From: Myxococcota bacterium
GTDB lineage: Bacteria; Myxococcota_A; UBA796; CAJQPC01
NCBI GenBank assembly: GCA_036012755.1
Contig: DASCPX010000129.1
Span: 64,001 to 128,000, forward strand
Direction: 5' to 3'
Length of the DNA stretch: 64,000 nt
Of the stretch, positions 17,090 to 62,443 are shown piece after piece. The stretch's first letter is position 1. Each line of letters opens with the position of its first letter. The position numbers were made by a program, and so were the translations under genes. The notes beneath the pieces are model-generated. The model saw only the letters and a list, made by a program, of their open reading frames with translations. It did not search any database and was not told the origin of the DNA.

Positions 17090-20000
17090 GTGATGATGGA
17101 CAGCGCGATTCGTATGCTCGGGCTCTGGGGGCTGATCACCCTCGCGCTCGCTCCGGGGATCGCCGCTGCGGCTTGCGGTGACGGCACGCTCGACACGGGC
17201 GAGGACTGTGACGACGAGAACACCACCAATGGCGACGGCTGCGACAGCAGCTGCGCGGTCGAGCTGGGCTGGGAGTGCGTGCAGTCCAGCTTCGAGCTGG
17301 ACTTCGCCGAGGTCGTGTACGACGACGGCCACAGTTCCCCGAGCTGGACGCTGAGCTCGGACAAGGCGACGGTGACGCAGTCCGTCAACGCCGACGCGGC
17401 GGTCTACGTGTCCACCCTGCCCGCCGAGGGCACGGCGATCACGGTCGAGCTGACCGTGAACACCAGCAGCGACGACGACTTCATCGGCTTTGCCCTGGGC
17501 TACGACGCTGGCGAAGGCTCCAGCTCGAGCGGTGAGTGGCTGCTCTTCGACTGGAAGCAAGGCACCCAGTACAGCAGCAACTGCGGCTACGGCAACGCCG
17601 GTACGGCGCTCTCCCTGGTCAGCGGGGCGCTCGCAGTTGGCGACACCTGGTGTCACACGGGCGCTATCAGCGAGATCACCCGGGGCAGCACCTATGGCTC
17701 GACCGGTTGGAGCGACAACACGACCTACACGGTGGTGGTCGAGTGCACCGCTACGACCCTGGACGTGTCGATCAACGGGAGTGTGGACATCGCCGAGACC
17801 GGCACCTTCGACTGCGGCAACTTCGGCTTCTACAACTACAGCCAGGCCAGCATCGAGTACGAGCTCATCGATCCGTTGGACGTCTCGGTCTGTGTCGAGA
17901 TGGACAGCGACGGCGACGGGGTCTACGACGCGGACGAGGACGTCGACGGCTCTGGCGACCTCGACGATGACGACACCGACGGCGACGGGGTCGCCGACTA
18001 CCTCGATACGGACGACGACGGCGACGGCATCGACACGGCGGACGAGGTCTACGACGGCACCACCGACCCCATGGACCAGGACAGCGACGGTGACGGGACC
18101 GCCGACTACCTCGATTCGGACGACGACGACGACGGCGTAGACACCAGCGACGAGGACGTCGACGGCGACGGTGACCCGACCAACGACGACAGCGACGGTG
18201 ATGGCACCGACGACTACCTCGATACGGACGATGACGACGACGGTGTCCTCACAGAGGACGAGGTCGACGAGGGCGACACGGACGGTGACGGCACCGACGA
18301 CTACCTCGACACCGACGACGACGGTGACGGCATCGACACGGCGGACGAGGTCTACGACGGCACCATCGACCCCATGGACCAGGACAGCGACGGTGACGGC
18401 GCTGCCGACTACCTCGACGCGGACGACGACGGTGACGGGGTCGACACCACTGAAGAGGACATCGACGGCGACGGTGACCCCACCAACGACGACTCTGATG
18501 GTGACGGGGACAGCGACTACCTCGATGTCGACGACGACGGCGACGGCATCGACACCATCGACGAGGACGCCGACGGTGACGGCGACCCGACCAACGACGA
18601 CACCGACGGCGACGGGACACCGAACCACCTCGACAGCGACAGCGACGGCGACGGTATCGACGACGACGTCGAGGTGGCAGACGGGACCGATCCCTATGAC
18701 AGCGACTCGGACGACGACGGGCTGGACGACGGCCAGGAGGCGGAGCTGGGCACCGACGCGAACGCGGACGCCGATCTCGACGGAGACGGTCTCAGCGACG
18801 CGGACGAGATCCTCGTCTACGGCACCGACCACGACGACACGGACTCGGACGAGGACGGCATCGAAGACGGGGACGAGGTGACCGAGGGTACGGATCCGGA
18901 CGACGCCGACAGCGACGACGACGGGCTCTCCGACCTCTACGAGCGCGACGTCACCGGCACCGATCCGAACGACAACGACTCAGACGACGACGGCCTCGAC
19001 GATGGCATCGAGCACGTCGTCACCGGCACGGATCCGAACGACTCCGACAGCGACGACGATGGTCTCTCCGATGGCGACGAGGTCACCGCGTACGGCACGG
19101 ATCCCAACCTCGATGACAGCGACGACGACGGTCTGTCCGACGGCGACGAGGTCGACGCGGGGACAGATGCTCTCTCTCGCGACAGCGACGGCGACGGTCT
19201 CTCCGACGGCGACGAGGTCACCGACGGCACGGATCCGCTGGACGGCAGCGACACCGACAACACGGGCACCGACACAGACGGAGATGGACTCTCTGATGCC
19301 TTCGAAGAGGCGATCGGCACGGATCCGGACAACGCCGACACAGACGGTGACGGGCTCTCCGATGGTGACGAGGTCCTCAGCTACGGCACCGACCCGCGCT
19401 GGGGAGACACCGACGGGGACGGCCTCTCCGACGGCGACGAGGTCGACACCTATGGGACCGACGCGCTCTCTCGCGACAGCGACGGTGACGGGCTCGAGGA
19501 TGGGGACGAGCTCCTCGCCAGAGGCACGGACCCGCTCGATGCGGACAGTGACGACGACGGCCTCGACGATGGTGAAGAGGCCGTCTGGGGCACGGACCCG
19601 CTCGATAGCGACAGCGACGGCGACAGCCTGAGCGATGGCGACGAGGTCTGGACCCACGGGACGGATCCGGCCAACGCCGACACCGACGGCGACAGCCTGA
19701 GTGACGGCGAGGAGCTCCTCACCCACGGTACCGATCCGCTCGACGAGGACACGGACGGCGGCGGCGTCTGGGACGGTCAGGAGCTCGACGAGGGCACGGA
19801 CCCGAGCGACGCTGCCGATGATGGCGACGGCACCGACACCGACGGCGACGGGCTCTCGGACGCCTACGAGAACCTCATCGGCACGGACCCCGGGAGCGCT
19901 GATTCCGACGGCGATGGCCTCGATGACGGCGAGGAGGTCGAGAGCTTCGGCACGGATCCGCTGGTGGCGGACAGTGACGGCGATGGCCTCGACGATGGCG

Positions 20001-20677
20001 ACGAGGTCGACGTGTACGGCACCGATCCGGCCAACGGCGACACCGACGGCGACGGTCTGTCCGACGGCGACGAGGTCGATGTGTATGGCACCGACCCACT
20101 CGACGCCGACAGCGACGACGATGATCTCTCGGACGGCGAGGAGGTCGATGTGCACGGCACCGATCCACTCGACGCCGACAGCGACGACGACGATCTGTCG
20201 GATGGCGATGAGCTCCACCAGACCCGGACGGATCCCCTGGACTGGGACACGGACGATGGCGGGCGCGGAGACGGTGACGAGGTGCTGGTGGACGGAACCG
20301 ACGTCCACGAACCCAGCGACGATCTCGCCGACACCGACGGCGACGGTCTCACCGACTGGGACGAGGACAATGTCTACGGCACAGATCCCGAGAACGCGGA
20401 CACCGACGGCGACGGCCTCGACGACGGCGAAGAGGTGAACGACTACGGCACCGACCCGCTGGACGCCGACACCGACGACGGCGGGGTCGACGACGGGGAG
20501 GAGGTGCGCAACGGTACGAACCCGGTGGACAATCCCTCCGACGACTTCCCCGGCGAGTACCTGGGAGGCTGGGGTGCTTGCGCGACCACACCGGCCCCCG
20601 GTGGCGCCGCGGCGCTCCTCTTGATGCTCGCGGGCCTCGTCGGTCTCCGCCGACGGACCACTGGAGGCAGACCATGA
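17090..20677 (+). CDS. Second acidic surface protein, paralog of 5228..11236
   Basis: Same architecture: [26 protein letters not shown], DxDGDG repeats, GGWGAC + TM + RRR. Confidence 0.85.
17900..20540 (+). repeat. Intragenic DxDGDG repeat array
   Basis: Same two repeat types as the first paralog, with fewer copies. Confidence 0.9.
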
Positions 20678-26036: not shown

Positions 26037-26939
26037 ATGCGCCGGGGTCTGTTGCTCGGGTTCACCACCCTGGTGGTGGGCGCGACCCTCGGGTGGTGGC
26101 AGCAGGACCGCATCATCGGTGAGTTCCGCATCCTGGGACGCCGCGGCGCCCTCGCCTGGCAGGTGGACGGGCAGTGGCGGTCGGTCACATCGGAGGATCG
26201 TCGTCGCCGCAGCTGGGGTCCCCACGACGCCTTCCTTCGGGACGGACTCTCATTCGATGTGCTCGAGCCGGGCTTGGAGCTCGCGCGGCTGCGCTACCGG
26301 AGGGATCCGAACCCCGCTGACTACGAGCTCCTCGTCGTTCGGGTCGACCCGGAGCTCTGGAGCTTCCGAGTTCGTGGGGAGGAGGACTTCCGCCGTGCGT
26401 CCATCTCCGAGCTTGCGGGTGACGCCAACATCGCTCTCAACGCGAGCTTCTTCGCCGAGGAGGGCCCTGTGGGGCTGGTCCTGCAGGATGGCATCGAGCG
26501 CGTGCCCCAGGGCTCGGCGCGGGCGGCCCACTTCCTGGTGGACCCGGTCTACGGACCTCGCGTCGACAACCGGAAGGGCGCGTCCCTCGAGGGGGTGGAG
26601 CACGGCGTCCAGGGCTTCCCGGCGATCATGAGCGGTGGAGAGACCTACTCCTACATGCGCGTGGGTGGTCGGGGGTTCCCGGTCCACCAGCTCAGTCGGC
26701 GGACGGCGGTGTGCTTGGACTGGGAGGGGCAGGTCCTGCTCACCGTGACCGACACGCCGCTCAACGGCTTGACCCTCAACGAGCTCGCCACGGTGCTCGG
26801 GGGACTCGGCTGCGAGGACGCGATGGGCCTGGACGGGGGATCCAGCACCGCCCTGTATGTGCGTGCAGGCGAGCGCAGCGTGACCGTGGATGCTCGGGAC
26901 GGAATCCCGGTGGCCATCCTGGTGGAGCCTAGGATCTGA
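26037..26939 (+). CDS. Phosphodiester glycosidase (NAGPA/DUF2233) family protein
   Basis: ALNASFF, RRTAVC, AMGLDGGSSTAL. Confidence 0.8.
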   Translation: MRRGLLLGFTTLVVGATLGWWQQDRIIGEFRILGRRGALAWQVDGQWRSVTSEDRRRRSWGPHDAFLRDGLSFDVLEPGLELARLRYRRDPNPADYELLVVRVDPELWSFRVRGEEDFRRASISELAGDANIALNASFFAEEGPVGLVLQDGIERVPQGSARAAHFLVDPVYGPRVDNRKGASLEGVEHGVQGFPAIMSGGETYSYMRVGGRGFPVHQLSRRTAVCLDWEGQVLLTVTDTPLNGLTLNELATVLGGLGCEDAMGLDGGSSTALYVRAGERSVTVDARDGIPVAILVEPRI

Positions 26940-27100
26940 ATTGCCCAACTCAGAATTGTAGATCCCAACACGTATCCACAAGACATTTCGGTAACTTGGT
27001 GCCAGCCGTGCCGAACGTGTGATGGCCCTGTGGACAGGGTTGGGCAGGATTGATCCAGCGTCACTGAGGCTAAGTGCCTGAAATCCCGTTCCTCGAAAGT

Positions 27101-27117
27101 TGGCACGGGGCATGCAT
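27101..27117 (+). promoter_or_regulatory. Sigma54 (-24/-12) promoter
   Basis: TGGCACGGGGCATGCAT with GG at 27102-3 and GC at 27114-5, exactly 10 nt between. IHF-like TAAGTGCCTGAAA at 27071-83. Confidence 0.8.
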
Positions 27118-27128
27118 ATGAGAGCCAC

Positions 27129-28263
27129 GACATCCGGGCATAACAATCCGGAGTCGACCGAGGGGAACCTCGGAACGTTCTTTGACGTCGACAATGCCAA
27201 CAGAAGGGTCTTCGGACCTGGAAGATGGCGAATGAAAGCCCAAGAGAGCAACGGGCGCTCCGCCACCGGAAACGGGGGTGGGACGCAACGGACTCTTCAG
27301 TGGATAAAGCCTTGAAGTCGATCGCCTGGACGGGCGGACTGGCCAAGCGGGACCTGGCAACGGGAAGCGTGGAAGCGGGACCAACCGGACAGAGGTGACT
27401 GGAAGCTGACGGCTCATGCCTGAAGCGGATGGGAATGGGCGGTGGCGCGGAGAGCGCGGCAGTGAGCGAACCTCGAGAACGCTTGGTGGCCGCGAAGGAA
27501 ACGCCAACGTCGTGAAACGGCAAGAAGGCAAGGTCTCGCGGTGACGCGGGAGCAGCTGCTGAGGAGGAGAAAGCTCTGAAGGGTCGGGCGTCGCGGAGAC
27601 GCGTTTGCGAACGAGTGCATTCTCGGGAGTGAGCGAGGTCGAACGCGGCGAACCCCAAGACCGGCTGCAGGGTGCAATAGACCTGCGGAGCCCGGGCGGA
27701 GAAAACCGCTGAGGTGGGGAGGAACCACGAGAGCGGAACGAGCGGGGCGCTTGGCAGCGCAACGCCGAAGGGAAGTCGAGCGAGACGAGACGCGTCCGAG
27801 CGTCACGACTCACAAAGCGAGGCTGACCGGGAGAGGACGCACGGGAAGGCGCTGGTAGAGGGGTGAGACCTGGACCCAAACCCATGAGAGGAGGTCGAGC
27901 AATCGACCAGCACGGAAGCCGCGTGTCTCTGTAGGGGAATCGAAGTTCATGAAGGCAACGCCTGTGAAAGGCGAGAGGTGGAAGCGAAGACCTCGAGGGC
28001 CATCCGGTCAATCAAACGTGTGAACAACGCGGACCGGGCAAGGCCGAGGAGGAGTCGGGAAAGGCCAAACGACCCGATAGTGACCACAACGGAGAGAGGG
28101 CGCGCTGTTTCGGCAGCGAGACCCGCTCAGAGCCCTGAAGGACCCGACAACTCCATGAGAGGCCAACCGAGCGCAATGGAACCAGTTTCGGCTGGGGTAT
28201 GCGCGAGGGGAAGGCGACCGAGGCGTAAGCCTCTGTAGGGAAGTCCCTCCGGGCTCGGATGTC
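27129..28263 (+). ncRNA. Candidate large structured non-coding RNA (~1.14 kb), family unassigned
   Basis: Lies between the sigma54 promoter and a terminator. 5' GACATCCGGGC pairs with 3' GCTCGGATGTC. Many GNRA/UUCG hairpins; no convincing protein ORF. Confidence 0.75.
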
Positions 28264-28269
28264 ACCCAG

Positions 28270-28301
28270 AAGCCCCGAGAGCGAAAGCTCTCGGGGTTTT
28301 C
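28270..28301 (+). terminator. Rho-independent terminator
   Basis: GCCCCGAGAGC-GAAA-GCTCTCGGGGT followed by TTT-CTGCTTT. Confidence 0.85.
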
Positions 28302-28351
28302 TGCTTTGGATCTGGAGGCGTCTCGGCTGGAGACGCCTGTCTCGCAGAGAC

Positions 28352-29365
28352 TCAGTGCACGACGCTGGCGATCGCGGGAGCTCGAAGCATCACGCGGTCC
28401 TCGCCGGGCAGGCGGACTCGGCGGAGCAGGCCCGCCATCATCAGCCGTTCGTCGACCTCGGGCTCGATGGAGAGGGGCTCGCCGGAGAGCAGATCATCCA
28501 GGCGGCAGCTCATCCAGGTGTCGGACCGGACGATGTCGACAGCGGAGCGGATCTCCTGGGCGAGGGGCCCCATGGACTTGACGAGGCCGTCGCGGGTCCG
28601 GGGCATGCCTCCCCCGCGGGCGTCGTCGCCGAGGGCGTCGACGACGGCTGGAATGCCCCCGGAGAATCGGGCCGCGGACTCCAGGGGGGTGCGCTCCGTG
28701 ATCCCCGAACGACCGACGATGGCGGCGGCGGCTTCGGCCTCGCCATAGTCTGCGAGGGGCACGCGCGCGGCGTCCTCTAGCACCAGCGAGGGCACGTCGA
28801 CGGCAGCGGCGAGCAGCATCGTCGTCTTGCGGTTCGCCGGGTACCAGCGCACGAAGTCGGACCAGATGCGGGAGAGGTCCTCGAGGGTCTCGATGGGGAG
28901 GTACTCGGCTCCGTGCCCGAGCAAGGCGACGGCTGCGCCGCGCTCCTCGAAGCGATCCTGGGCGTTCATCAGGAGGTCCAGGGCCAGGGTGCGGAAGCCG
29001 TGCCGGCCGGCCACCATCGGCACCGGGCGATCGTTCCACTCGTCCGAGCAGAGCTGCGAGAGGATCTGCAGGACGAAGTGCCAGGCCTCGGGCGCGCGCC
29101 GGCCCTTCAGGGGACGGAAGGACACCGTGCGGCAGCCGACAGCGGGCTCTCCGACGGCGAGGTCGAGAGCCAGCTCCTCGAGGAAGGTCTGGGGCTTCGA
29201 CCAGCGCGGGGTCGTGAGGATCATCGGCTCCAGCCGGCGGAGGTGCGTGCGCACCTTGCGAGCCGTGCGGCCACGCAGCGCGGCCTCGATGAAGTGCTGA
29301 TCGGGATCGAAGGAGTCCCGCCGGGCCACCCTCAACATCTGCATCCTGCGTGCGAGCCGGCTCAT
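28352..29365 (-). CDS. Hypothetical protein, probable degenerate AAA/STAND-type NTPase fold
   Basis: Spacing of elements resembles STAND ATPases (LADYGEAEA, FSGGIPAVV), but the Walker A/B positions are degenerate. Confidence 0.5.
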   Translation of the reverse strand: MSRLARRMQMLRVARRDSFDPDQHFIEAALRGRTARKVRTHLRRLEPMILTTPRWSKPQTFLEELALDLAVGEPAVGCRTVSFRPLKGRRAPEAWHFVLQILSQLCSDEWNDRPVPMVAGRHGFRTLALDLLMNAQDRFEERGAAVALLGHGAEYLPIETLEDLSRIWSDFVRWYPANRKTTMLLAAAVDVPSLVLEDAARVPLADYGEAEAAAAIVGRSGITERTPLESAARFSGGIPAVVDALGDDARGGGMPRTRDGLVKSMGPLAQEIRSAVDIVRSDTWMSCRLDDLLSGEPLSIEPEVDERLMMAGLLRRVRLPGEDRVMLRAPAIASVVH

Positions 29366-29470: not shown

Positions 29471-31129
29471 GTGAGTCGCCCCCCGCGCCACACCCTGGTC
29501 CCCAACGCCAACAACGTGAGGCTGCTGGCGCGGCTTCTCGAGCTGGTCGCGCAAGGGGTGCGCGAGCCACGCACGCTGGCCGAGGTCCTCGACTGCGAGG
29601 TCCGCACGGTCCACTACTACACCCAGGCTGGGGACTGGCTGAACCTGCTCGAGACCGACGAGCGCACCCACCGTCCCTACCTCACCCGGCTGGGTCTGGA
29701 GTACGTCTACGCCGGCCGAAAGAGGGCGCGGGTCTACTCGCGCGCCGTGTGGGGGACGCAGTTCGTCGCCCAGCTGATGGACGGCCGCCGCACCCTCCCG
29801 GAGAACGAGGCCATCGCGGCCTTCATCCGGAAGAACGTGCCCGACATGGCTGCCTCCACGTCCAGGCGCCGAGCGAGCGCGGTCCGCAGCCTGCTGGAGC
29901 CGGCGATGCGCTACCCGGCGCCGAGCAGCTCGGGTCACCAGCTGAGCCTGGACCTCGGGCTCGCCCAGCCCCCAAGGGTCACGGAGCCGCCGCTGGACCT
30001 GTCGGTCGGCACGGAGGGCTCGCCGGATGTCTACCGACTCGTGCTGAGGGCGCTGCTCGACTTCGGAGAGCTGAGCCTGTGGCACGTCCGGGCGCTGCTG
30101 GACCGGGCCGGAGGGCAGGACTGCCCGGTCGCGCCCTATGTCGAGCTTGCCGTCGAGCGAGGTGACGCCTGGCGCGTCGGGGATCGGATCGTCGTCAGCT
30201 TCGGCGCGGCCTGGCGCCGGGACCTCGCCGACACGGTCGCGGGGGTGGCGCTGAGCGACCCCGGCTACAGGGCCTACCTCACGGTCCTTCGCCAGACCGC
30301 AGACGGGGATCCGGGCGCGGCCATGGACTATGCGCGTCTCCAGGAGCGCTACGCCGCCTGGGACCGCCGCATCTTCGGCCGCGAGGTCCGGCCTCCAGAG
30401 CTCGCAGCGGACCTCGACCGTGTCCTGCTGGGCCGGCCGATCGACGCTTTTCCGCTCGCTGGCGAGCCCGGGCCGGAGCCCTCTCCCCTCACCGGCGCCT
30501 TCCTGTCCATCTGCGAGCACGAAGGGGTCGTCATCGCCCTGCCGCCGTCCCTGGGCCAGCTGGTCGACGGGGTCTCCGGGGCCAATGCTGCGCTGGAAGC
30601 CCGCCGAACCGGCGAAGGCAGCCGCACTCCCAGCCACCTCGACAGGCGCGAGCTGGTCCACGGGGGCCTGTTCCACCCGGGCGAGGTGCGAGGGCGTGCC
30701 ATCCCCGACCGCGTCACCCTGCGGCACCGAGCGCTCTGTCACGTGCCCCACCTGGCCATGGTCGCCGCACTGTTGGTGGCGCACCGGAAGCGGCGTGGGG
30801 CCTTGCGGATCCGGGCCAGCGAGAGCCGCCTGGAGCTCAGGCTGGGCCGACGCTCCATGGGAGAGCTGCTCTACCTGTTGGACGAGTTCTGCTCGGAGCA
30901 GGGCTGGCTGGTGGCCCGTCGCCCCCGGGCGGGACTCTCCGGGGCCAGCATCGCGGCGGTGCTCGAGTCGCTGGGGGTCGCGGTGCGCTTCGATGACCTC
31001 CTCGTCCTCGACGAGGCCTTCTTCGTCCGGCTGCAGTCCGACGCGGAGGATCGGGAGATCTACGAGGGCCTCCTGCCCTTGTCCGAGCGACTCGTCGCCT
31101 TCCTCGAGGAGTGGCGCGGGGAGCCATGA
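29471..31129 (+). CDS. Hypothetical protein with N-terminal winged-helix-like region
   Basis: LAEVLDCEVRTVHYY HTH-like segment and STSRRRASAVRSLL; long ORF with typical codon bias. Confidence 0.55.
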   Translation: MSRPPRHTLVPNANNVRLLARLLELVAQGVREPRTLAEVLDCEVRTVHYYTQAGDWLNLLETDERTHRPYLTRLGLEYVYAGRKRARVYSRAVWGTQFVAQLMDGRRTLPENEAIAAFIRKNVPDMAASTSRRRASAVRSLLEPAMRYPAPSSSGHQLSLDLGLAQPPRVTEPPLDLSVGTEGSPDVYRLVLRALLDFGELSLWHVRALLDRAGGQDCPVAPYVELAVERGDAWRVGDRIVVSFGAAWRRDLADTVAGVALSDPGYRAYLTVLRQTADGDPGAAMDYARLQERYAAWDRRIFGREVRPPELAADLDRVLLGRPIDAFPLAGEPGPEPSPLTGAFLSICEHEGVVIALPPSLGQLVDGVSGANAALEARRTGEGSRTPSHLDRRELVHGGLFHPGEVRGRAIPDRVTLRHRALCHVPHLAMVAALLVAHRKRRGALRIRASESRLELRLGRRSMGELLYLLDEFCSEQGWLVARRPRAGLSGASIAAVLESLGVAVRFDDLLVLDEAFFVRLQSDAEDREIYEGLLPLSERLVAFLEEWRGEP

Positions 31130-61138: not shown

Positions 61139-62443
61139 GTGCTGGCCCCCTTCCTGGCGTGCATTGGCAGCTCGGTCATCGACCGGACCCCTCCGAGCGC
61201 TCCGGTCACCAGCCTCGCCCTGGAGCCAGTCATCGTGCGGGCCTCCGGGACGCTCGTGTGCCGTCTCGCAGGAGAGCCCCACGAGCTCCACAGGGTCGCC
61301 GCCGTTGATGGTGTCTACGCTCTCCATGGCTTGCTGGCGGACTCCACCTACAGCTGCAACGTCGGCCTGGGCGAGCCCTTCGAGGTCACGACGGAGCCCC
61401 TGCCAGACTGGGTCCCGAGGCCTGTCGTCGGGGGGGATCCGGGGAGCAGCGAGGTCGGATACCTGCTGGCCCAGACCTTCTGGCAGGACGATGAGGATCG
61501 TGTGGGCCAGCCCGCGCTCGTGATCCTGGATCGCGAGGGACGTGTTCGCTGGTACCACGCCCTCGGCGAGGACTACGAGGCCGTCGACGCCAGCTACCTT
61601 GGTGACGGACGAGTGCTCTATGGCGGCAACGGTGGCCCTGTCCGAGAGGTCGACCTCTACGGTGAGCCGATCTGGGAGTCCTGGCAAGGCATCCATCACG
61701 ACGTCGAGGAGCTCCCGTCGGGCCTCGTCGCTGGCCTCATCGAGGCGCCACAGCCCGACTACATGGCCTTCGGCGTCGTGGTCTTCGACCCGAACACTGG
61801 CGAGGAGACCTGGCGCTGGGAGTCTCAGGACCACCTCGACACCTTGCCGCTGCCGGCGGAGCACTCCATCTACGACGTCTGGCACGCCAACTCCTTGCAG
61901 ATCGAAGAGGTCGACGGCGTCGTGGAGTCGGCCTGGATCAACGTCCGGAACCAGGACCTCATCCTTCGCATCGATCGCGACAGTGGCGACGTGGACCTGA
62001 GCATCGATCCCAGGGAGTGGTCGATCCAGAAGGCCGGCGGCGAGGACGCCGAGTGGTTCCACCAGCCCCACGACGTCCAGGTCCGTGGCCACGAGATCCT
62101 GCTCTACGACAATGGCTGGGTGGGTGGCTACAGCCGCATCATGGAGTTCGAGTTCGACGAGGACAGCCGCGTCGCGACGGGGACCTTCCAGTGGGGCGAG
62201 AGCTGGTACGAGTCCGTCTGGGGAGGCGTCGACGAGCTCGGCGGGGGACACCTCATCGTCGCTCGGGGCCACTGCACGGGCTGCCCCACGAAGGGGACCG
62301 GCGGGAGTCAGCTCATCGAGGTCGACCGCAGCGCCCACGAGGACGTCTGGCGCGTCCGCTTCGAAGAGGAGGGCGTCGGGCTCTACCGGGTCCGTCCCAT
62401 CGATGGCTGCTCGATCTTCAGCACCTCGCGCTACTGCGACTGA
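61139..62443 (+). CDS. Arylsulfotransferase (ASST)-like lipoprotein, tandem paralog
   Basis: ILDREGRVRWY, HHD, WHANSL, QPHDV, LYDNG. Confidence 0.75.
   Translation: MLAPFLACIGSSVIDRTPPSAPVTSLALEPVIVRASGTLVCRLAGEPHELHRVAAVDGVYALHGLLADSTYSCNVGLGEPFEVTTEPLPDWVPRPVVGGDPGSSEVGYLLAQTFWQDDEDRVGQPALVILDREGRVRWYHALGEDYEAVDASYLGDGRVLYGGNGGPVREVDLYGEPIWESWQGIHHDVEELPSGLVAGLIEAPQPDYMAFGVVVFDPNTGEETWRWESQDHLDTLPLPAEHSIYDVWHANSLQIEEVDGVVESAWINVRNQDLILRIDRDSGDVDLSIDPREWSIQKAGGEDAEWFHQPHDVQVRGHEILLYDNGWVGGYSRIMEFEFDEDSRVATGTFQWGESWYESVWGGVDELGGGHLIVARGHCTGCPTKGTGGSQLIEVDRSAHEDVWRVRFEEEGVGLYRVRPIDGCSIFSTSRYCD

Follow-up and report, generated by a model that had tools for sequence, protein, structure and literature searches.

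An apparently undescribed paired module, recurring eight times, in a very large structured RNA of myxobacteria-like bacteria

Among bacterial RNAs that are longer and more complex than ROOL, the accessible text of PMC5737381 names only rRNA, GOLLD and group II introns. GOLLD and ROOL are RNA-only nanocages held together by A-minor and kissing contacts, and in both RNAs contacts that were first found by covariation turned out to be intermolecular (excerpts of PMC12286853). On a smaller scale, A-minor junctions set the stacking of helices, as Geary, Chworos and Jaeger put it in the available part of PMC3035441.

Here we describe a locus in 64,000 nucleotides of a Myxococcota bacterium (contig DASCPX010000129.1, positions 64,001 to 128,000); "the window" below means this whole stretch. 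At 27127-28303 on its forward strand we predict a stand-alone gene for a large structured non-coding RNA of about 1.14 kb (~1,140 bases). Judged against the available parts of PMC12286853 and PMC12990946, it shares several traits with GOLLD and ROOL: it is a large non-coding RNA that stands alone, its multi-junction structure covaries, its 5' part varies, and covariation reveals a contact between two loops. However, it is longer, 965-2710 nt across its homologues, with large variable insertions, against about 550-830 nt (PMC12990946, same part). Further, GOLLD and ROOL often lie by tRNA genes or in prophages, whereas a tRNA occurs in only 1 of 40 flanking regions of this RNA, and neither searches of phage and plasmid records nor pattern scans of IMG/VR gave a match to it (one 27-nt match from the phage, plasmid and viral searches was discarded at E 0.4). 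Finally, its promoter is of the sigma54 type and it repeats one module eight times; the available parts of the same two papers describe no such module in GOLLD or ROOL; a keyword search of the motif tables of PMC12286853 returned none either.

Comparison with catalogued RNAs gave the same picture. At gathering score there are 0 Rfam matches in the window, GOLLD, ROOL, OLE and raiA included, and only terminator-level matches appear (E 2-8.7); 20 homologues gave 0 matches at E<=0.5. ARAGORN and Rfam find no tmRNA or RNase P at the locus; the genome's RNase P RNA is located elsewhere and contains no module. A literature search over listings and abstracts, with most subscription journals outside its scope, returned no description of this RNA or of the module, and the portions of PMC12968392 (on raiA), PMC5737381 and PMC11656743 at hand mention no comparable one. 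A coding function was rejected. The long open reading frames that overlap the RNA are matched in homologues by short pieces only (at most 106 aa, some with stops), two of them are unmatched, and two antisense frames, 313 and 335 aa long, lack conservation as reading frames. What is left are the features of the descriptive class of large ornate bacterial non-coding RNAs: a long covarying multi-junction structure, an own transcription unit and no conserved open reading frame. We conclude that a new family of very large bacterial RNAs, outside Rfam, carries a repeated, covarying module that is apparently undescribed.

The RNA gene and its surroundings

Upstream of the RNA lies a phosphodiester-glycosidase gene (PF09992), which ends at 26939, and downstream a convergent gene, 28352-29365 (-), whose end is at 28352 and which has no Pfam family. 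The features of the RNA gene itself are the following.

27127-28303 (+): predicted gene of a large structured non-coding RNA, in a purine-rich intergenic gap, with covarying structure and with contigs from RNA runs that match without mismatch
27101-27116 (+): putative sigma54-type promoter (-24/-12), from the sequence; start predicted at about 27127
27129-27139 (+): 5' strand of closing stem P1, paired with 28253-28263; inverted repeat I16 with 11 of 11 pairs, a call made from the repeat and not from covariation
28253-28263 (+): 3' strand of the 11-bp closing stem P1, paired with 27129-27139
28270-28303 (+): terminator-like hairpin with 13-bp arms and a short U run, inverted repeat I8

From its consensus we take 27101-27116 to be a promoter of the sigma54 type. 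Such a promoter is found upstream of the RNA in 36 of the 41 distinct genomic homologues that have at least 1400 nt of upstream sequence, and RpoN is encoded in the same genome. The hairpin at 28270-28303 received no call from a consensus terminator scan. Below, the stable form of the RNA, single-copy in this genome, is taken as about 27129-28267, the host span also being stated as 27127-28267. The assignment to the + strand is supported by the excess of cUUCGg loops on that strand, 3.2 per kb versus 0.9 for the complement.

Sequencing runs contain the RNA as well. In 20 of 23 listed runs 58-84% of the sampled words are present, 17 being on record as RNA. Four RNA runs from four studies yielded one mismatch-free contig each (27141-28267, 27137-28267, 27141-28266 and 27185-28262); in three of these runs the contig starts 10-14 nt from the predicted start, and contigs end just 5' of the terminator-like hairpin. 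Diverged family members are present in the same four runs. These contigs are a weak hint of the RNA ends, because they show neither strand nor level and have no DNA-run control; likewise, the lack of cover over 2.4 kb on either side of the RNA in the same four runs, with no DNA-run control, carries no evidential weight. Among 80 metagenome contigs with flanks, many start at the family's 5' block and stop just after the last module.

Some further observations concern the neighbourhood. Two 9-mers upstream of the promoter, at 26972-26980 (+) and 27029-27037 (-), are presumably DnaA-box-like; such 9-mers precede the promoter in 14 of 35 genomic copies versus 5 of the 518 other sigma54-like sites of this genome, and they may couple expression to replication or belong to an activator site. 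An imperfect palindrome at about 27041-27060, some 45-65 nt 5' of the -24 element and seen by eye, uncounted, in many homologues, is a candidate site for an enhancer-binding protein. The divergent gene pair 28352-29365 (-) and 29471-31129 (+), the latter with a weak DUF7226 match, adjoins the RNA here and at four other loci (L217, L222, L223 and L225). Elsewhere in the window, 17090-20677 encodes a predicted surface protein of 1195 aa with many Asp-rich repeats and a C-terminal tail like a sorting signal, and ARAGORN calls a 94-nt tRNA-Glu(CTC) at 61988-62081 (-); a tRNA-Glu(CTC) is called in L211 too.

The repeated module

An earlier reading of the sequence alone had listed seven repeated motif strings, starting at 27306, 27570, 27878, 27927, 28129, 28149 and 28231. 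All seven stand where it placed them and nowhere else in the window, and it was right that this is not a CRISPR-type array, as there are no regularly spaced direct repeats. The prefix GACCC that it gave to two of them does directly precede the 27878 motif (at 27873); before the 28149 motif it stands three bases off, at 28141. It is in any case not a conserved element, the column consensus at 27873 being variable and the copy at 28141 overlapping the closing helix of another module.

Whether the repeats exceed chance depends on what is counted. In this one sequence, exact repeats occur no more often than in shuffles, so this part of the proposed test went against the motifs: 27100-28270 holds 3 repeated 10-mers versus a mean of 2.4 in 500 dinucleotide shuffles (P=0.39), and 14 repeated 9-mers versus 8.4 (P=0.098). 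The best mismatch families are equalled by shuffles, and only patterns chosen post hoc appear significant. Hence the case for the motifs rests on homologues, in which they are indeed conserved. A structure-aware test that draws on these homologues does beat the shuffles. The strict finder, which looks for two complementary module strands, returns 5 modules in this RNA versus a mean of 0.048 and a maximum of 2 in 1000 shuffles, although the test is partly circular because its pattern was derived from the same family. Over the whole genome, 1 of 11,610 tiles has at least three modules, and it is this RNA; over 84 homologous elements the mean is 5.9 modules versus 0.09 in their own shuffles.

For the alignments, 125 distinct elements supplied 93 sequences whose 3' part was complete and 88 whose 5' part was suitable, and after dropping sequences that were more than 95% identical, 89 (3') and 86 (5') aligned homologues were left. 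From their covariation we conclude that the motifs are the two strands of one double-stranded module that is used eight times between 27238 and 28241. Its layout is an unpaired AA, a helix of 4 bp, a symmetric 3x3 purine loop (RNG/GNR) and a second helix of 4 bp. The predicted strands, with the numbers of well-paired homologues, are as follows.

27238-27248 (+): M2 RNG strand, outer module of domain 1; pairs with 27574-27584; 83/85 homologues well paired; not in the earlier list
27574-27584 (+): M2 GNR strand (the motif listed at 27570); pairs with 27238-27248, by covariation
27310-27320 (+): M3 GNR strand (motif listed at 27306), inner module of domain 1; pairs with 27518-27528; 82/86 well paired; 6/8 pairs compensated
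27518-27528 (+): M3 RNG strand; pairs with 27310-27320
27653-27663 (+): M4 RNG strand, outer module of domain 2; pairs with 27853-27863; 78/82 well paired
27853-27863 (+): M4 GNR strand; deviant in this sequence, where its loop begins with A
27707-27717 (+): M5 GNR strand, inner module of domain 2; pairs with 27725-27735; 85/89 well paired
27725-27735 (+): M5 RNG strand; pairs with 27707-27717
27880-27890 (+): M6 RNG strand (motif listed at 27878), outer module of the 3' domain; pairs with 28231-28241, not with 27927; 79/85 well paired
28231-28241 (+): M6 GNR strand (motif listed at 28231), by covariation; last conserved block of the family
27927-27937 (+): M7 GNR strand (motif listed at 27927); pairs with 28151-28161; 68/80 well paired; 7/8 pairs compensated
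28151-28161 (+): M7 RNG strand (motif listed at 28149); pairs with 27927-27937
27945-27955 (+): M8 RNG strand; pairs with 28133-28143; 72/83 well paired; 8/8 pairs compensated
28133-28143 (+): M8 GNR strand (motif listed at 28129); pairs with 27945-27955
27991-28001 (+): M9 GNR strand; pairs with 28042-28052; 78/88 well paired
28042-28052 (+): M9 RNG strand; pairs with 27991-28001

The seven listed motifs thus correspond to 7 of the 16 module strands; their pairing with one another had gone unseen, and M4, M5 and M9 have no strand in that list. A single-sequence fold of the whole gap pairs the 27878 motif with the 27927 motif, which covariation rules out. Folding within the predicted ends, with no alignment, forms the tested pairs in 7 of the 8 modules, and the covariation-based fold is only 13 kcal/mol above the free minimum.

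Over all aligned instances, 625 of 678 are well paired, and 562 of these 625 fit RNG/GNR; M7 and M8 are looser on the loop pattern (47/68 and 56/72 fit). The AA stands before the RNG helix, at a fixed distance, in 567 of the well-paired instances. At one end of the loop stands a G.G pair (584/625), at the other A.A (465) or G.G (114); its middle position is free, with 16 different pairs, and the closing pair is C-G in 589. With 80-89 aligned homologues per module, the flanking helices are paired in 87-98%, versus 14-76% when the partners are slid by 1-3 positions, and 1-8 of the 8 pairs per module are compensated; our covariation scores ignore kinship, except for these slid-partner controls and for the count of A.A/G.G exchanges, which was made on a tree. 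On that tree of 66 sequences the two end pairs exchange independently 3 times in M3, 4 times in M5 and 7 times in M9. The end-pair types of M3 and M5 seem linked at first sight, but descent accounts for this (6 joint changes versus 3+4 separate). These substitution patterns point to a module that is conserved in shape and not in a sequence to be read out.

Several known motifs were compared with it. The UAA/GAN internal loop is similar in its 3x3 loop, its GAN-like strand and its repeated use for long-range contacts in large RNAs (PMC2615604, available part). In that motif a UAA strand faces GAN, with a trans U.A pair. The module is not that motif: the opposite strand begins with U in 7 of 625 instances only, its last base is mostly G and not A, and there is no fixed U.A pair. 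The kink-turn, likewise short, recurrent and rich in purines, is another internal loop to which protein can bind, and it has a 3-nt bulge followed by tandem G.A/A.G pairs. It was rejected as well, given a symmetric 3x3 loop with ends of G.G and A.A or G.G, no 3-nt bulge and no obligatory tandem G.A.

Architecture and rival readings

The eight modules nest in four pairs of opposite polarity, M2 enclosing M3, M4 enclosing M5, M6 enclosing M7 and M8 enclosing M9, and each adjoins a multiway junction. In every pair the strand order is RNG before GNR in the outer module and GNR before RNG in the enclosed inner one; three of the four pairs have a hairpin, a connecting helix and a purine linker separating the two modules. 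In 11 of 38 loci a covariance model of the central domain alone has a further match at E<0.02 (up to 49 bits) in the 5' domain. Each such match is on the sense strand and upstream, and this supports a relation of the 5' and central domains (1 and 2) by duplication. Because its matches to the 3' part are weak (E>0.05), duplication is supported for domains 1 and 2 alone. A ninth module, absent in this RNA, closes the variable 5' insertion in 28 of 61 homologues, which suggests that the module acts as a clamp at the base of domains.

Four other elements of the fold deserve mention.

27752-27755 (+): hairpin loop of a predicted loop-loop pseudoknot or kissing contact; pairs with 28064-28067
28064-28067 (+): partner loop of that contact; pairs with 27752-27755
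27667-27686 (+): conserved hairpin with a T-loop-like loop (27672-27678) on a covarying 5-bp stem
27718-27724 (+): second T-loop-like loop, which caps the covarying M5 helix

Among 85 homologues the four pairs of the loop-loop contact persist in 87-98% and show compensatory changes. The loops 27672-27678 and 27718-27724, which we presume to be T-loop-like, are adjacent in the central domain, and the closing pair of the second exchanges between U.A and G.G. The two could form an interlocked double T-loop. Interlocked double T-loops are platforms that bind the tRNA elbow.

With a little more belief than doubt, we lean towards reading the module as a repeated unit that would pack helices in the manner of A-minor junctions and hold the fold together. 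The earlier proposal of a modular RNA with repeated tertiary-contact or protein-binding modules holds in its general form: the motifs are kept in homologues, belong to one module and occupy equivalent places by multiway junctions. Like the A-minor junctions described in the available part of PMC3035441, the module would place conserved adenines, as donor, and a receptor, either helix or loop, beside a multi-helix junction, where they could set stacking; the receptor here would differ in being a 3x3 symmetric loop that ends in G.G and A.A, and the docking is inferred. As in A-minor junctions, the adenines at the junction would dock in a minor groove, that of an adjacent helix or purine loop, and would determine the stacking of helices. 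No covariation in the aligned homologues ties any AA to a specific receptor. The RNA would have grown by duplication of a module-bearing domain and would fold into a rigid particle, largely independent of protein, in which the loop-loop contact further ties the central domain to the 3' domain. What the RNA as a whole does is a weakly supported working guess: made from the sigma54 promoter under an inducing condition, it would serve as a stable scaffold or as a sequestering particle.

The same conserved features could be seen by a protein. Two homopurine pairs can widen the major groove for a protein, with a precedent in the HIV Rev element, and those of the module could equally do so. About eight copies of one protein would then coat the RNA into an RNP, as L7Ae does on k-turns. 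The near-invariant G.G, the C-G closing pair (589/625) and the fixed helix lengths suit recognition of shape, and eight similar sites in one RNA are unusual. However, no protein gene is co-located, the sites would lie in a buried trunk by junctions, the conserved AA is outside the duplex, as one expects of a tertiary donor, and a free middle pair between freely covarying helices offers little to read. On balance we regard such a coat as unlikely. Slightly less probable still, in our view, is that the modules or the loop-loop contact act between molecules and build a cage or lattice like those of GOLLD and ROOL. The compensatory changes in the 27752-27755/28064-28067 pairing would suit it, as would the partial interchangeability of the M2, M6 and M7 strands in this sequence and the intermolecular outcome for the covarying contacts of ROOL and GOLLD (PMC12286853, same excerpts). 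Against it, the aligned homologues show no covariation between strands of different modules, hence no strand swap: cross-module pairing is as good between different molecules as within the same one. There is also no self-complementary loop among the top covarying pairs, and the assembly would have to tolerate insertions that take the RNA from 965 to 2710 nt.

The sequence-only reading had suggested a multimerising scaffold, against which the absent covariation between modules weighs and for which the compensated loop-loop contact speaks, or else a protein sponge. A sponge of the CsrB/RsmZ type with repeated single-stranded motifs now seems barely credible to us and is largely refuted, even though the RNA is purine-rich and stand-alone with its own terminator-like hairpin, and GGA words run 15-35% above shuffles in pooled homologues. 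The motifs are base-paired over long range in trunk helices and are not in hairpin loops, ANGGA is not enriched (8 in the RNA of the window versus 11.5 in shuffles), Rfam gives no match, and the number of modules does not scale with length (Spearman 0.24; after subtracting shuffles 0.19, P=0.08). Nor do we put much faith in chance repeats of a purine-rich tract or in a relic intron or mobile element, a very improbable pair of readings of which the chance part is refuted. Exact repeats do not exceed shuffles in the single sequence, and some genomes have 2-6 matches. Against this, 18 of 19 pairs of the core domain are compensated and 0 of 500 shuffles reach its covariation score (the alignment being fitted to the model), and the RNA has its own promoter in 36/41. 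A group I or II intron or mobile-element RNA was rejected: there is no such Rfam match, the RNA sits between intact genes, and among 77 scanned proteins of its close neighbourhood there is no reverse transcriptase, transposase or integrase family.

Distribution and meaning

By BLAST, 46 of the 154 genomes searched in the order have the RNA; by central-domain covariance models, 76 of 151 do, or 32 of 61 near-complete ones. With these models, each of two phylum samples has it in 30 of 151 genomes. The occurrence is patchy, several well-sampled families being without it. A narrow pattern gave four matches in named records: a Myxococcota bacterium (two contigs), a Deltaproteobacteria bacterium and one uncultured Enterobacteriaceae. 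The last title is doubtful, because the Deltaproteobacteria and Enterobacteriaceae records share neighbouring genes with loci of this order, and it is probably a mislabel. Some distant members have no sigma54 site. Three (L187, L190 and L195) are of about 0.7-1 kb, keep the module and, by eye, have sigma70-like promoters. Tandem copies or 2-6 matches to the RNA core occur in some genomes (L034, at 864-996 and 2444-2576; G131:C29; G032:C1; G048; G160). No universal partner gene emerged from 260 predicted flanking ORFs at 44 loci, where the largest clusters of shared neighbours comprise 5 proteins.

Few bacterial RNAs combine more than 600 nt with a complex structure. Members of this family exceed GOLLD in length, are encoded on chromosomes and occur in about half of the genomes searched in one order. 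One small motif in eight or nine copies within duplicated domains amounts to a natural experiment on the growth of large RNAs by module duplication, and it is a candidate new three-dimensional motif with hundreds of natural variants. With its ends approximately known, the RNA is a ready target for cryo-EM. If we extrapolate, tentatively and with clearly more doubt than belief, a new family of 1-2.7-kb bacterial RNAs would have arisen by duplication of one self-docking module; module and loop-loop contact would act also between molecules, giving a protein-free cage or lattice larger than GOLLD on a sigma54 signal, and the two T-loop-like loops may form a platform for tRNA elbows or for another RNA. 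For the uncultured myxobacteria-like bacteria that host it, the family may reveal a new way of building very large RNAs from one repeated part.
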